Notes: generated by a model from the sequence alone, not told the origin. A stretch of 64,000 nucleotides of DNA from Gaiellaceae bacterium (GCA_045806045.1 JBJMKB010000087.1:12277-76276), one strand, 5' to 3'; shown: positions 45,817-50,832, counted from the first letter of the stretch. A program made the numbers and translations.

Positions 45817-46527
45817 ATGTCAGACCGTCGCGGGTCGCGGTTCGTCCTCGAGGTTCTCTTTCTCCTCGCGCTTGCCGTTGCGCTGACGCTGACGGACCTC
45901 CGTCCTGTCGAGATCGCCGGCGTGATGCTCGTCGGCTGGGTCGTCGTCGCGCTGTTCGAGTGGGCCGCGTGGCGCGACGAACCGCACTACGGAAGCGGCT
46001 TGCCGCCGCGCTACTACGTGCCGCAGGTCAGCCTGCCTCCCGCGCAGCCGCTCGAGCAGGTCGCCGCCGGCTATCCGGAGGCCCGCGACGAAGCTCCGAC
46101 GTGGATCGCCTCCGCGGCTCTCCGCGAGGAGATGCTCGGCGACTGGCCGATCGCGGCGCCCGCGGAGCCTCCCGTCTCCCCGCCGCAGCCCCCCTCGATG
46201 CCTACCCCGGAGCCGGACCCGGTCGGCGACCCCGACCCGTGGACGATCCAGGAGCTCCCGGCCGCGCCGCTCGGGGAGCTCGAGCCCGACGATGCCGCCG
46301 CTCCGGAGCCCCAGGAGGTGGCGGACGCGGAGCCGCAGCCCGTGCTCGAGGTCGTGCTGACGCAGTCGGTCCATGCGATCGCCCGCTACTCGCTCGACCC
46401 GCTTGCCGAACCCGCACCGCGCAGGCGCTTCGGTCGCGGCACGATCGTCGAGGCGCCTGCCGTGGAGGTGCCGTCGCGGCCTCAGGGCCCGCGCCCGCTC
46501 CCCGGCCGGCCGAACCGGCAGGATTAG
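45817..46527 (+). CDS. two-TM membrane protein with proline-rich tail
   Basis: 236 aa; SD GAAGAGGA upstream; N-terminus RFVLEVLFLLALAVALTL ... VMLVGWVVVALFEW, then PPQPPSMPTPEPDP. Confidence 0.6.
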   Translation: MSDRRGSRFVLEVLFLLALAVALTLTDLRPVEIAGVMLVGWVVVALFEWAAWRDEPHYGSGLPPRYYVPQVSLPPAQPLEQVAAGYPEARDEAPTWIASAALREEMLGDWPIAAPAEPPVSPPQPPSMPTPEPDPVGDPDPWTIQELPAAPLGELEPDDAAAPEPQEVADAEPQPVLEVVLTQSVHAIARYSLDPLAEPAPRRRFGRGTIVEAPAVEVPSRPQGPRPLPGRPNRQD

Positions 46528-46530
46528 CGC

Positions 46531-47193
46531 GTGAGCGCCCTTCGCCGCCCGGGCCTCCGCTTCGTCGCGGAGGCGGTCGTGATCGTCCTGACGGCGGTCG
46601 TCACCGGGCTCCTGCACGTCGGCGCGCTGGGGATCGGCGGCGCGGTCGCGATCGTCTGGCTGGCGTACGTGGTGATCGAATACTCCCTCGCCCATCCGCG
46701 CGAGCGGAAGCCCGAGCCCGTCCTCGCCGAGCGTCCCGAGGAAGCGGCGCCGCCGTTGCCGGGCACGGAGTCGGTGCGCGTGCTCGACGCTCCGCCCGAG
46801 CTCGTTTCAGAGCCCGAGCCGGTCTCGGACGCCCCACCGGAGCGCGAGCCGGAACCGGAGCCGGAACCTGAACCTGAACCTGAGCCGCCGCCCGAACCGG
46901 AACCCGAGCCCGAGCCGGAGTCCGACACCACCGCCGTGGCAGAGATCGAGCCCGAACCCGAGCCGGAGGCCGAGCCCCCTCCTGAGCCCGAGCCCGAGCC
47001 GGTGGAGGCACAGGAGTGGAACGTGTGGGAGATCGCGCGCGTCCTCCGCCAGCAGGGCGACACGGACGAGGAGCGCGAGCTGCTGCTGATCTACCTGCGC
47101 GACTACGCGAACCCCGACGGTGTCCTGCCGGTCGACTTCGACGCGCTCGTGCGAGAGTCGTTCCCCGACGTGGTCGGGACGCCTGCGGGATGA
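46531..47193 (+). CDS. two-TM membrane protein with (Glu-Pro)n repeats; architecture like the preceding gene
   Basis: 220 aa; N-terminus [18 protein letters not shown] ... [14 protein letters not shown], then [25 protein letters not shown] and [18 protein letters not shown]. Confidence 0.6.
46840..47001 (+). repeat. imperfect hexanucleotide (GAR-CCN)n coding repeat, two blocks
   Basis: GAGCCGGAACCGGAGCCGGAACCTGAACCTGAACCTGAGCCG... and GAGCCCGAACCCGAGCCGGAG... Confidence 0.8.
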
Positions 47194-47597
47194 GGCCGCG
47201 TCTCGCGCAGCGCGAGGTCGCGCTCGCGGGGCTCGCGCTACTCGCGATCGCCGTCTCGCTCGCCGTGAACGCGCAGACGCGCCAGACGACCCCGACGACG
47301 CCTCAACCGGAAGGCTCCTACGCGGCGCGCGCAGGCTCGAGCGGCCCGGCCGCGTTCGGACGGCGCACAGCCTGCGGCGGCGTGATCAGACCCGACACCG
47401 TCGGCGTCTCGCATCCGACGCTGCCCTGCGGCGCGCGCGTCTTCATCACGTATCGCGGCCAGACGGTGCTGACGCAGGTCGTCGATCGTGGACCGTACGT
47501 TCCCGGCCGGCAATTCGACCTCACGGATGCGCTTGCGCGCCGGCTGGGCCTGCGAAACGTTCAGGAGATTCACTGGTCTTACGCTCGCTCGGGCTAG
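47190..47597 (+). CDS. rlpA: RlpA-like (DPBB) lytic transglycosylase-family protein
   Basis: 135 aa; signal/[21 protein letters not shown] motifs GRRTACGGV ... [14 protein letters not shown] ... VVDRGPY; ATGA overlap with the upstream gene. Confidence 0.8.
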
Positions 47598-47607
47598 GAA
47601 ACGGCGC

Positions 47608-47613
47608 TACAGT
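47608..47613 (+). promoter_or_regulatory. -10-like TACAGT positioned to start a transcript 2-3 nt before the structured domain
   Basis: TACAGT 47608-47613; a start site 6-8 nt downstream would fall near 47620, and the closing helix starts at 47623. Confidence 0.3.
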
Positions 47614-47619
47614 TTGGGC

Positions 47620-47810
47620 GAGTGCTCGATCTCGTTCGTGCGCTGCGTATCCATGTAGAACCAACACCATGTGAAAGGGAGCCCGCGTCGGGCCTACGTG
47701 CCTCGCACGGACGGTTCGCGTAGCACCCACCTGGCTTGTCCAGGTTCACACGGACGCGGCACAACCGGCGAGATCGGAGCATGGTGAGGGGAGCTTCGGC
47801 TCCCCTCACG
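47620..47810 (+). ncRNA. candidate structured ncRNA (~190 nt); family unknown, strand tentative
   Basis: 12-bp long-range helix 47623-47634 / 47769-47781 (one bulged G) encloses about 135 nt with local helices (47637-47642/47704-47709; 47729-47734/47740-47745). Perfect hairpin GTGAGGGGAGC-TTCG-GCTCCCCTCAC at 47784-47809. No credible ORF. Confidence 0.4.
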
Positions 47811-47812
47811 AC

Positions 47813-47979
47813 TAGAGGCTTGATGTGGATTGGGGTGCTTGTGGGGATGGCTCAGACCAAGCAGGTCGTTCGGGTCGGGCGCAGGGCATAGCGGTGCCTA
47901 CGTTCAAGCCCGACCCGGGCGAGATGCGCCGTGTCTGAGCCACCATCCGCGAGTGCACGAGATCCACATCAAGCCTCTA
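47813..47979. ncRNA. 167-nt rod-shaped hairpin element (6S-like RNA candidate, or a MITE)
   Basis: Perfect 18-bp terminal inverted repeat TAGAGGCTTGATGTGGAT / ATCCACATCAAGCCTCTA. Internal helices 47845-47857/47933-47948 (13 bp, 3-nt bulge) and 47871-47880/47908-47917 (10 bp). Two 13-15 nt internal loops. Confidence 0.4.
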
Positions 47980-47980
47980 C

Positions 47981-47986
47981 TAGTCT
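47981..47986 (+). promoter_or_regulatory. -10-like TAGTCT, 6 nt upstream of the mnmA ATG
   Basis: CTAGTCTGGAACGATG; places the rod element upstream of, not within, a leaderless mnmA mRNA. Confidence 0.35.
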
Positions 47987-47992
47987 GGAACG

Positions 47993-49252
47993 ATGATCGA
48001 GCTCTACGGAGATTCCGCACGTGGGGGAGACTGGGCAGCGGTTCGCCTGCGCGTCGACGGCGAGACGATCGTCGACGCGGACGCGCCCGGCGTCGCCGGC
48101 GATCTCCGCGGCCTGACGCTTTTCGAGGCCGCCGCTGTCGGCGGCGAGACGTTGCCGGTCGACGCGCTCGCGAACGCGCTGGCACCGGCGCTGCAGGCGA
48201 AGCCGGACGACCGACGTGTGGCCGTCGCGATGAGCGGCGGCGTCGACAGCGCTGTCACGCTGCTCAAGGCCAGCGAGCATGCCGTCGGCGTGACGCTGCG
48301 CCTGTGGCTCGACCCCGACGGGCCGGATGCCGAGCGCGCGTGCTGCTCCCCCAGCGCCGTGATCGCGGCGCGCGAGACGTGCCACGCGCGCGGCCTGCCG
48401 CACGTGACGCTCGACCTTCGCGAGGAGTTCCGGCGAGCCGTCGTGACGCCGTTCGTGCGCGGCTACGCGCGTGGCGACACGCCGAATCCGTGCATTCGCT
48501 GCAACGGCGGCTTTCGCTTCGCCGAGCTGCTCTCGTTCGCGAAGCGGGTCGGCGCCGCGCGTCTCGCGACCGGCCACTACGCGCGCATCGTCGAGCGTGA
48601 CGGCAGCCTCTTCCTCGCCCGCGCCCATGACGGATCGAAGGACCAGAGCTACATGCTCGCAACGCTCGAACCGCGCAAGCTCGGACGTCTGTGGTTCCCG
48701 CTCGGCGAGCAGACGAAGGAGCAGACACGTGCGGAGGCCGCGGCTGCTGGACTCGCCGCCGCGACGCGCGCCGACAGCCAGGAGGCGTGCTTTCTCGCCG
48801 GCGACGACTATCGCAACTTCCTCGCGCGCCACGGCGTGCAGGGCGCGCGCGGCCCGGTCGTCGACGAATCAGGTCGCACGCTCGGCGAGCACGACGGACA
48901 CTGGCGCTTCACTCCTGGTCAGCGCCGCGGTCTCGGCATCTCGGCGGCCGAGCCGCTCTACGCCGTCGGCACCGACGCGCGCACGAACACCGTCGTCGTC
49001 GGCCCGCGCTCGTCGCTCGCGCGCACGACGGTTTCGGCACGCGGCCGCCTCTTCGCACATGCCGACCGCGTCAGCGCAAAGCTGCGCTACCGGTCGCCCG
49101 CGGTCGGCGCCGCCGTCGAGCCGACGGCGCACGGTTTCACGCTGCGGCTCGACGAGCCTGCGTTCGGCGTCGCGCGCGGTCAGGCGGCCGTTCTCTACGA
49201 CGGCGACGTCGTCGTCGGCTCCGGCCTGGTGACATCCGCACGCGGCGACTAG
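47993..49252 (+). CDS. mnmA: tRNA 2-thiouridine(34) synthase MnmA with a ~75-aa N-terminal extension
   Basis: PP-loop AMSGGVDSAV at residues 79-88, catalytic Cys context NPCIRCN, MnmA sequence to the C-terminus. Extension has high GC3. A canonical-length start is also possible at GTG 48218. Confidence 0.9.
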   Translation: MIELYGDSARGGDWAAVRLRVDGETIVDADAPGVAGDLRGLTLFEAAAVGGETLPVDALANALAPALQAKPDDRRVAVAMSGGVDSAVTLLKASEHAVGVTLRLWLDPDGPDAERACCSPSAVIAARETCHARGLPHVTLDLREEFRRAVVTPFVRGYARGDTPNPCIRCNGGFRFAELLSFAKRVGAARLATGHYARIVERDGSLFLARAHDGSKDQSYMLATLEPRKLGRLWFPLGEQTKEQTRAEAAAAGLAAATRADSQEACFLAGDDYRNFLARHGVQGARGPVVDESGRTLGEHDGHWRFTPGQRRGLGISAAEPLYAVGTDARTNTVVVGPRSSLARTTVSARGRLFAHADRVSAKLRYRSPAVGAAVEPTAHGFTLRLDEPAFGVARGQAAVLYDGDVVVGSGLVTSARGD

Positions 49253-49261: not shown

Positions 49262-49717
49262 ATGATCGTCGCCTTCTCCTTCGGGGATCTCGCCTCGCTC
49301 GCCCTCGCAATTTTCCTGCTCGCGGTGGGTATCGGCCTCGGATGGGCGTTCTTGCGGCTGGCCGTAACTTTCGACCGACTTTCTTCGTTGATTCGTGGGG
49401 CAGAGCAGGAAGTGCTTCCGGTGATCAACAAGGTCGGAGGTTCGGTGGATCGGGTCAATGCACAGCTGGACAAGCTCGACACGGCGACCGACAGCGCGGT
49501 CGACGCGGTGGTCGCCGTCGACGAAGCGGTGCGCTCGGTCAGCTACGCCGTGAAGACGCCGGTGCAGAAGCTTGCCGGGCTGTCAGCCGGCGTCTCGCAC
49601 GGCTGGGCATCGCTCCGCACGCGGCGCAACTGGCGCGAGGCCGTCGACGAGGCGAAGTCCGCGGCGGAGCGGCGCCAGCGGGATCTCGACGAAGAGCTGA
49701 AGGCAACGCATGACTGA
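49262..49717 (+). CDS. DUF948-like membrane-anchored protein
   Basis: 151 aa; N-terminal TM LALAIFLLAVGIGLGWAFL, then helical region typical of DUF948. Confidence 0.6.
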   Translation: MIVAFSFGDLASLALAIFLLAVGIGLGWAFLRLAVTFDRLSSLIRGAEQEVLPVINKVGGSVDRVNAQLDKLDTATDSAVDAVVAVDEAVRSVSYAVKTPVQKLAGLSAGVSHGWASLRTRRNWREAVDEAKSAAERRQRDLDEELKATHD

Positions 49718-50078
49718 CGAGATCACGCTGACGATCCCGCGCGAGCGCGACTTTCATCGTGTCGCGCACCTCGTGCTCGGCGGACTCGCCGTCCGCCTCG
49801 AGCTGACGATCGAGAATCTCGAGGACCTCGAACTCGCGCTCGATGCGATCCTCGACCACTCGGACCCCGAGAGCGGGGAAATCACCGTGCAGATGTCGTT
49901 GCGCGAGGGCGCGCTCGAGACGAGCGTCGGCCCGCTGACGACGAAGGTGCTCGACGAGATCGAACAGGAGCAGAACGGCGCCCTGAGCCTGCGTCGCGTG
50001 CTCGACTCGACGGTCGACGACGTCCACGTCGACGGTCAATTCGTCCATCTCACAAAGAAGGTCTCGGCTCGTGGGTGA
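49710..50078 (+). CDS. RsbW/SpoIIAB-like anti-sigma-factor homologue lacking ATP-binding motifs
   Basis: 122 aa; N-terminus ITLTIPRERDFHRVAHLVLGGLAVRLELTIENLEDLELALDAIL resembles RsbW, but N, G1 and G2 boxes are not recognisable; 8-nt overlaps with both neighbours. Confidence 0.5.
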   Translation: MTDEITLTIPRERDFHRVAHLVLGGLAVRLELTIENLEDLELALDAILDHSDPESGEITVQMSLREGALETSVGPLTTKVLDEIEQEQNGALSLRRVLDSTVDDVHVDGQFVHLTKKVSARG

Positions 50079-50832
50079 GAGCGACAAGGCCCTGCTCCGG
50101 CGCTACCACGAGGAAGGCGACCTCGCCGCCCGTGAGCAGCTGATCGAGCAGTACATGTCGCTCGTGCGCTCGCTGGCCCGGCGATACAGCTATCGCGGCG
50201 AGCAGCTCGACGATCTCGTCCAGATCGGCTCGATCGGGCTGATCAAGGCGATCGACCGCTTCGACCTCTCGCGCGGCGTCGAGCTCACCACCTACGCGAC
50301 CCCGAACATCATCGGCGAGATCAAGCGGCACTTCCGCGATCGGGGCTGGGCCGTTCGCGTCCCGCGAGGCCTCCAGGAGCTGAACGTGCAGCTCTCGAAG
50401 CTCGTCGAGGGGCTGACCGTGCAGCTCGGCAGGTCTCCGACGATCCCCGAGCTCGCAAAGGCGGCGGGCGTCGAGGAGGAAGAGGTGCTCGAGGCGCTCG
50501 AGTCCGGCCGCGCGTACTCGTCGCTCTCGCTCTCGCAGGGGACGGGCTCGGAGGACGGGGAGGACCTCGATCCGCTCGAGTCGCTCGGGGAGGTCGAGCA
50601 CCAGTACGAGGTGTCGGAGGATCGCGCCGTGCTCGCTCCGGGCTTCAAGGTGCTCGACGAGCGCGAGCGGCGCATCCTGCACCTGCGCTTCTTCGAAGGA
50701 TTGACGCAGTCGCAGATCGCCCAGCAGATCGGGATCTCGCAGATGCACGTCTCCCGTCTGATCAGGCGGGCGCTCGAGAAGATCCGCGACGAGATCGCCG
50801 CGGAGGAGCTCGACCCCGACCGCGCCGCCTGA
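50071..50832 (+). CDS. SigB/SigF-type (group 3) RNA polymerase sigma factor
   Basis: 253 aa; DLVQIGSIGLIKAIDRFD, YATPNIIGEIKRHFRD, HTH TQSQIAQQIGISQMHVSRLIRRAL. Confidence 0.9.
   Translation: MGESDKALLRRYHEEGDLAAREQLIEQYMSLVRSLARRYSYRGEQLDDLVQIGSIGLIKAIDRFDLSRGVELTTYATPNIIGEIKRHFRDRGWAVRVPRGLQELNVQLSKLVEGLTVQLGRSPTIPELAKAAGVEEEEVLEALESGRAYSSLSLSQGTGSEDGEDLDPLESLGEVEHQYEVSEDRAVLAPGFKVLDERERRILHLRFFEGLTQSQIAQQIGISQMHVSRLIRRALEKIRDEIAAEELDPDRAA

Follow-up and report, generated by a model that had tools for sequence, protein, structure and literature searches.

The element at approximately 47620-47784 on the + strand of the window (the whole 64-kb stretch of DNA analysed) is very probably the ssrS gene, specifying the 6S RNA, of a soil bacterium that belongs to the order Gaiellales in the class Thermoleophilia of the phylum Actinomycetota. 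It lies between an ORF that stops at 47597 and the mnmA gene starting at 47993. A DPBB_1 (RlpA-like) domain was detected in the upstream ORF (E = 3e-10) and all three MnmA domains in the downstream ORF; the gene limits agree with those given in an earlier note on this DNA. That note had described the interval as a structured RNA fitting no known family, either an independent small RNA or the first part of a longer one. The length of the element, ~164 nt (47620/47621 to 47782-47784), or ~190 nt if the hairpin at the 3′ end is retained, is within the ~150-200 nt of 6S RNAs.

The identification comes from the Rfam 6S/SsrS model (RF00013). Searching positions 47500-48100 in E-value mode gave a + strand match covering model positions 1-187, with a score of 31.9 bits and an E-value of 9.9e-5 that refers to this 601-nt search and becomes ~0.01 when scaled to the whole window. 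The score of the window copy falls below the gathering score of the family (46.4 bits), which is an operational cut-off, and scanning the whole window at gathering thresholds returned two tRNAs only. RF00013 is the sole significant Rfam match in the intergenic region. Two other candidates were rejected as chance-level matches, CC3513 (E = 1.4, overlapping the 3′ hairpin and the inserted element discussed below) and MIR164 (E = 9.7, in the same interval). Within the 6S alignment, the window sequences GGGAGC, GCACCCACCUGG and CAGGUUCA fall on upper-case, i.e. most conserved, positions of the RF00013 consensus with high posterior probability.

The gathering score is exceeded by five orthologues (L007, 49.8 bits; L062, 47.9; L051, 47.6; L054, 52.2; L037, 51.7), all at the position homologous to 47621-47784, and the L007 element is 85% identical to that of the window. 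Only these 5 of the 29 relatives scanned with Rfam reach it, while in E-value mode RF00013 was the only family at E ≤ 0.1 in 7/9 loci scanned (31.4-52.2 bits). The Gaiellales family straddles the Rfam 6S threshold, with the window copy at the low end. The Rfam 6S seed, as of Rfam 10.0, was drawn from proteobacteria, cyanobacteria and low-G+C Gram-positives (PMC3082871), and an actinobacterial RNA of 63-70% GC scores weakly because such lineages are missing from it. The claim that no known family fits is therefore not borne out: RF00013 matches, orthologues pass its gathering score, and 6S RNA was missing from the families that had been compared. The Rfam search removes the novelty of the feature and leaves the feature itself standing.

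For the comparative analysis, 80 related loci (L001-L080) were gathered via the MnmA relatives found in the genome collection, all from Gaiellales, Gaiellaceae or Thermoleophilia MAGs and 61-84% identical; the window accordingly derives from an uncultured Gaiellales bacterium. By blastn, the element is present in 59/80 of these loci, almost always directly upstream of mnmA. A structure-blind MAFFT alignment of 43 sequences was then used to derive a covariance model of the family; this is a narrow model, with 2.8 effective sequences. It gave a single match in the 64-kb window (47615-47789, 157.8 bits) and one copy per locus in 75/80 related loci. A second alignment of 76 sequences was fitted to this model and leans towards the modelled structure. 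Against the E. coli ssrS locus the same model gave no significant match: where it overlapped ssrS it reached at most 6 bits (E = 0.28), less than a chance match elsewhere. With so narrow a model this outcome is uninformative, and the link to the classical 6S RNAs is the one made by the Rfam model. One contig in the set, L075 (JAICUZ010000023.1), is probably mis-binned: its label names a Burkholderiales MAG, but its mnmA is of the Gaiellales type (80% identity) and it contains the Gaiellales 6S element (139 bits with the family model).

The region 47608-47812 (205 nt) folds at -99.2 kcal/mol, compared with -78.0 +/- 4.4 kcal/mol for dinucleotide-shuffled sequences (z = -4.8; 0/200 shuffles as stable). 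The minimum free energy (MFE) fold is one long, unbranched rod with the 11-bp UUCG hairpin behind it; in the conserved form of the rod, a closing stem and the internal GAACC/GGUUC stem are separated from an apical stem by a central bubble of 14+14 nt (Table 1). We examined the rod, taken as the window MFE structure minus the bubble pairs, in both alignments, using as controls the same structure with the 3′ partners slid by 1-3 columns. In the 43-sequence alignment 81.7% of cells are paired and compensatory changes occur in 34/54 pairs (194 cells, against 51-76 in the controls). In the 76-sequence alignment the values are 83.2% and 42/51 pairs (427 cells, against 92-140 in the slid controls). 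The slid controls are 35-43% paired. Conserved U-G and G-U pairs (for example, UG in 41/43 sequences) identify the + strand as the RNA strand.

All the helices and boxes named in the earlier note are in the window where it had placed them, and the relatives show both conservation, with the element present in 75/80 loci, and compensatory changes along the rod. The closing helix that it drew (47623-47634 with 47769-47781, 12 bp and one bulged G) is supported by such changes. The multi-branch domain that it proposed is not, as the conserved fold is a single rod. Two of its inner helices, CGTGCG/CGCACG and GCCCG/CGGGC, exist in the sequence and are poorly kept in the 43-sequence alignment (55.6% and 71% of cells paired, respectively); in their place the pairing of the rod holds in 81-85% of cells, with many compensatory changes.

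Table 1. Features of the probable 6S RNA gene and its surroundings (window coordinates)
Feature	Position	Strand	Remarks
6S (SsrS) RNA gene, very probable	47621..47784	+	~164 nt; extent of full-length RF00013 alignment
-10-like box TACAGT	47608..47613	+	family consensus CGC-TACAGT, i.e. TANNNT
Closing stem, 5′ strand	47622..47647	+	pairs with 47755-47782; MFE pair table
Internal stem, 5′ strand	47650..47662	+	UCC.AUGU.GAACC; pairs with 47743-47754; includes invariant block GUAGAACC
Central bubble, 5′ strand	47663..47676	+	AACACCAUGUGAAA, 14 nt; unpaired in RNAalifold and Rfam 6S consensus
Apical (terminal) stem-loop	47677..47728	+	GGGAGC... with ...GCACCC
Central bubble, 3′ strand	47729..47742	+	ACCUGGCUUGUCCA, 14 nt; unpaired in consensus fold and Rfam alignment
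Alternative 3′-bubble hairpin ACCUGG-CUUGU-CCAGGU	47729..47745	+	arms invariant in 43/43 sequences; loop varies
Closing stem, 3′ strand	47755..47782	+	partner of 47622-47647
Perfect 11-bp GC-rich hairpin, UUCG loop	47784..47809	+	no U-tract
MITE	47815-47977 (163 bp); TA duplication 47813-14 and 47978-79		perfect 16-bp terminal inverted repeats GAGGCTTGATGTGGAT, 47815-47830 and 47962-47977
TAGTCT, -10-like box of mnmA	47981..47986	+	6 nt upstream of ATG 47993

In the closing stem (helices 1-2 of the 76-sequence alignment), 22/23 pairs show compensatory changes, for example at columns 19/187 (UA:39, CG:28) and 34/170 (CG:38, GC:21), and so do 14/17 pairs of the apical stem (helices 5-6). Around the bubble the sequence itself is conserved. 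The GAACC/GGUUC helix, which also belongs to the Rfam 6S consensus, is invariant except for an A-U pair replaced by U-A or U-G in 6 sequences (U-A in 5; columns 54/156), and on the other side the bubble is bordered by invariant GGG/CCC pairs (76-sequence alignment). Similarly, GGGAG and CACCC of the apical stem are invariant and lie on upper-case Rfam consensus positions, and CCAAC in the 5′ bubble strand is nearly invariant (43-sequence alignment). The single-sequence MFE structure pairs part of the bubble, using the variable loop of the 3′-bubble hairpin; this pairing is not conserved.

The 3′ bubble strand can also form a hairpin that takes in part of the GGUUC arm of the internal stem, and this ACCTGG/CCAGGT helix of the earlier note is upheld by the invariance of its arms in the relatives. 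The hairpin and the internal stem share GGU and are therefore mutually exclusive; the energies of the two conformations are -95.3 and -90.2 kcal/mol. A further potential hairpin was observed on the 5′ side. Many family members can pair the stretch immediately 5′ of GAACC with the one immediately 3′ of CCAACAC, and the pairs covary in the 76-sequence alignment (AUGUAG/CUACAU, ACGUG/CACGU, AUGGUG/CACCAU and CUCUGUA/UACAGAG; e.g. in L003, L073, L053, L052, L017 and L039). This 5′-bubble hairpin would expose GAACCAAC in its loop and competes with the internal stem; in 23/65 sequences, no more than 5% of the shuffled versions reach an equally good fold. The clade of the window itself has only a weak form, CAUG/CAUG (-2.1 kcal/mol, p = 0.27), and we do not count this hairpin among the features of the window copy.

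The architecture of closing stem, internal stem, central bubble and apical stem is that described for 6S RNAs (PMC9130861, citing Barrick 2005 and Wassarman 2018). With the RF00013 family, including E. coli ssrS and B. subtilis 6S-1, the element shares its length, the rod with a large bubble, the probable status of an independent gene with its own promoter, the consensus positions occupied by GGGAGC ... GCACCCACCUGG ... CAGGUUCA, and a hairpin competing with the internal stem. It differs in the sub-gathering score of the window copy, in the extra GC hairpin at the 3′ end, and in the possible second, covarying hairpin on the 5′ bubble strand of many Gaiellales members. The neighbours are also different, an rlpA-like gene and mnmA in place of the ygfA/fau gene that adjoins ssrS in E. 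coli and, according to PMC9130861, in many Proteobacteria and Firmicutes.

The host phylum is a further difference: no convincing 6S RNA is reported from Actinobacteria, and Ms1 and CoRP were found there instead (PMC9130861, PMC11077062); the organisms studied in these two papers all belong to the class Actinomycetes. Ms1 (MTS2823 in Mycobacterium, scr3559 in Streptomyces) is ~300 nt long, compared with typically ~180 nt for 6S, and is distinguished by short hairpins added at both ends, by binding to sigma-free core polymerase and by synteny with HAD-hydrolase/oxidoreductase genes (PMC9130861). CoRP of Corynebacterium glutamicum, described as a new type, is an abundant polymerase-associated RNA able to bind the core as well as the holoenzyme (PMC11077062). 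The element could be 6S in shape and yet bind the core polymerase, or both forms, rather than the holoenzyme containing the primary sigma factor. This would agree with a host phylum where the place of 6S is taken by Ms1 (Mycobacterium, Streptomyces) and CoRP (Corynebacterium), with the core binding of Ms1 and of earlier actinobacterial "6S" candidates that are structurally 6S-like (PMC9130861, PMC11077062), and with the window copy scoring below the Rfam 6S threshold. The element resembles Ms1 in its host phylum, its 6S-like rod with a central bubble and its GC-richness, and like Ms1 it is presumably an abundant polymerase-associated RNA. With CoRP, compared by its published description, it has the host phylum in common.

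Several features nevertheless separate the element from these RNAs. It is ~164 nt long against ~300 nt for Ms1, it has no 5′ hairpin and a single 3′ hairpin where Ms1 carries a short extra hairpin at each end, and its neighbours encode DPBB/RlpA-like and MnmA proteins, not a HAD-hydrolase and an oxidoreductase; of the description of Ms1, the element shares only the 3′ hairpin. No Rfam family besides 6S was counted at E ≤ 10 in the interval of the element, five orthologues score above the 6S gathering threshold, and the match covers the conserved sequence flanking the bubble. We therefore regard an RNA of the Ms1 or CoRP type as unlikely, and a 6S RNA remains the preferred reading.

The -10-like box TACAGT with a start near 47620, proposed in the earlier note, gained support from the relatives. 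In 66/74 family members there is a TANNNT motif whose end lies 5-13 nt before the closing stem, compared with 0.46% of random positions in the same loci, and in several of the eight misses the box lies one or two bases beyond the distance window used. The predicted transcription start is G47620 or A47621. Scanning 47300-48200 for sigma-70 promoters found none, and no -35 consensus, with a scan not tuned to the TANNNT-only promoters of actinobacteria.

The perfect 11-bp stem with its TTCG loop is likewise present as first described, and compensatory changes from A-U to G-C maintain it in the close relatives L004 and L002. In more distant relatives another GC-rich hairpin takes its place, and some have none, with a T-run directly after the closing stem instead. 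The 3′ hairpin, being variable among relatives, is therefore accessory and outside the conserved 6S core. It is likely to be the terminator or the 3′-end stabiliser of the 6S transcript; termination at this site may not be assured, as the U-tract is absent. A terminator scan of 47300-48200, not tuned to terminators lacking a U-tract, detected no canonical site.

The position of the element between the two protein genes in most genomes, often less than 60 nt before the mnmA start, would be compatible with a cis-acting role, either as a 5′ leader of mnmA (a riboswitch, an attenuator or a protein-binding site) or as a 3′-UTR element of the rlpA-like gene. In four loci, however, the element is still adjacent to mnmA and on the opposite strand (L023 805-975, L061 2758-2927, L056 171-332 and L040 2723-2898); these are local inversions of the ~170-nt gene. 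In five others it is displaced from mnmA by several hundred to ~1200 nt (L046, L069, L074, L039 and L080), the distance being 600-1200 nt in the first three. Moreover, mnmA has a -10-like box of its own, and a TANNNT motif was seen by eye 6-9 nt before the mnmA start in many relatives (e.g. GCTACGCTGG..ATG and GCTAGCCTGG..ATG), with no evident Shine-Dalgarno sequence; mnmA probably has its own promoter and a leaderless mRNA. This box and the stable 3′ hairpin separate the element from the mnmA start, the conserved -10-like box of the element follows just after the upstream stop codon, and in the window a mobile element lies between the RNA gene and mnmA. A leader or 3′-UTR function is therefore very unlikely. 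The inverted and displaced copies, together with the mnmA box, argue for an independent gene, and the suggestion of an independent small RNA read from the + strand is further supported by the conserved -10-like box and the 3′ hairpin.

Several other features of the neighbourhood were recorded. Upstream, positions 45817-47193 contain two consecutive ORFs (236 and 220 aa) with no Pfam match, both with a hydrophobic segment at the N-terminus and a long low-complexity tail rich in Pro and Glu (the ORF at 46531-47193 has a PEPEPE... run). The RlpA-like ORF, as annotated, starts within the second of them; its true start is probably an internal ATG (MRPRLAQ...). Downstream, a sigma factor of the group-3 type (regions 2, 3 and 4) is encoded at 50071-50832. 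The 122-aa ORF that precedes and overlaps it (the pair spans 49710-50832) matches no Pfam family and may encode an anti-sigma or partner-switching component.

The rod-shaped sequence that follows the 3′ hairpin is a miniature inverted-repeat transposable element (MITE) and is unrelated to the 6S RNA. None of the 80 relatives has a match to the 175-nt rod (47811-47985). The rod carries perfect terminal inverted repeats and no ORF, and L001 has preserved the empty site, ...CTCCCCTCACGAC-TA-CTCTGGGTAG-ATG (...CACGAC-TA-CTCTGG...), relative to which the window shows an insertion with TA on both sides. The insertion point lies 3 nt beyond the 3′ hairpin of the 6S gene and falls on the TA of the ancestral -10 box of mnmA. 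With both repeats required, a scan of metagenomes identified 14 further copies (163-178 bp, 61-96% identity) on soil and sediment contigs (L081-L094), with unrelated flanks and mostly TA...TA borders; none adjoins a 6S element. Small size, inverted repeats, TA duplication, absence of an ORF, multiple copies and a long hairpin are all shared with the TA-duplicating MITEs derived from IS630/Tc1-mariner-type elements, with the difference that no autonomous partner transposase was identified for the rod. Its assignment to the IS630 type has the TA duplication as its sole basis, which we take to be a trait of that family.

A different kind of small repeat was observed in the 6S-mnmA spacer of L054 (2750-3000), L029, L035 and L028, which holds one or two copies of a ~110-nt GC-rich palindromic sequence with the pattern …GGCTCCGC-TTTCGC-GGAGCC… / GCCGGC-nnn-GCCGGC. 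This appears to be a further family of small repeats that inserted at this same position.

The nature of the rod bears on the longer transcript suggested in the earlier note, a single RNA of ~360 nt running from 47620 to 47985 and joining the 6S-like domain to the rod. The whole intergenic region is indeed very stable when folded (z = -9.8), and no U-tract follows the hairpin that separates the two parts. The stability is, however, largely that of the MITE palindrome, inherent in such an element. The rod is absent from 80/80 relatives, unlike the 6S part, and its perfect 16-bp inverted repeats, the TA duplication, the empty site of L001 and the fourteen other copies at unrelated loci without a 6S element all speak against a common RNA. 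We consider the ~360-nt RNA to be even less probable than a cis-acting element, and this part of the earlier note is not supported, although read-through may occur. Finally, a chance structure without function, of the kind that GC-rich genomes (70% here) yield in numbers as stable hairpins, is effectively refuted by the comparative data, namely conservation in 75/80 genomes and invariant blocks beside variable, compensating stems, as well as by the folding z-score of -4.8.

For the 6S RNA, a course of action can be proposed from what is known of 6S in E. coli and 6S-1 in B. subtilis, which bind the holoenzyme as mimics of an open promoter and serve as templates for a short product RNA (pRNA) (summarised in PMC9130861 and PMC11077062). 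As in these two species, the RNA would be transcribed from its own promoter, with the TACAGT box and a start near 47620, and the transcript would end at, or be stabilised by, the hairpin 47784-47809. The ~164-nt rod, with its 14+14-nt central bubble, would mimic melted promoter DNA, occupy the active-site cleft of the RNA polymerase holoenzyme carrying the housekeeping sigma factor, and so sequester it during slow growth. During outgrowth, the polymerase would synthesise a pRNA on the 5′ bubble strand as template, extending into the internal stem; this pRNA is predicted to be 5′-GUUGGUUCUAC... and to be templated by the invariant block GUAGAACCAAC; the predicted template comprises the 5′ strand of the internal stem plus 47663-47665. 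The pRNA hybrid would unzip the GAACC/GGUUC stem, and the freed 3′ strand could then snap into the invariant ACCUGG/CCAGGU hairpin, with collapse of the bubble and release of the polymerase. We infer that the 3′-bubble hairpin may act as the release switch. Hairpin rearrangement is the accepted release mechanism of 6S RNAs, and such a hairpin of the 3′ bubble strand is said to underlie pRNA-driven release in the work of Beckmann (2012) and of Panchapakesan and Unrau (2012), as cited in PMC9130861.

For the phylum, a well-supported 6S family in the Gaiellales suggests that 6S RNA is ancestral. Tentatively, one could imagine that a canonical 6S RNA persists in the Gaiellales, which branch deeply within the Actinomycetota, that the well-studied class Actinomycetes uses Ms1 or CoRP, and that the ancestral 6S RNA was later replaced there; the conserved potential to form hairpins on both bubble strands might in addition point to a different release switch. 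We think of this scenario as possible and still rather doubtful. The presence of 6S RNA in deep actinobacterial lineages may already be contained in earlier surveys (Barrick 2005, Wehner 2014), and we claim no priority for it; the literature on Rubrobacter, Conexibacter, Thermoleophilia and Gaiella made no mention of 6S RNA among the matches listed.

With this assignment, an apparently unclassified structured RNA becomes an annotatable gene, and a 76-member alignment with a model is available for a clade in which the Rfam 6S threshold misses most copies. A 6S homologue in the early-branching Thermoleophilia would help to date the replacement of 6S by Ms1 and CoRP, and the 6S RNA of the Gaiellales would be a natural comparison for the evolution of RNAs that sequester RNA polymerase.
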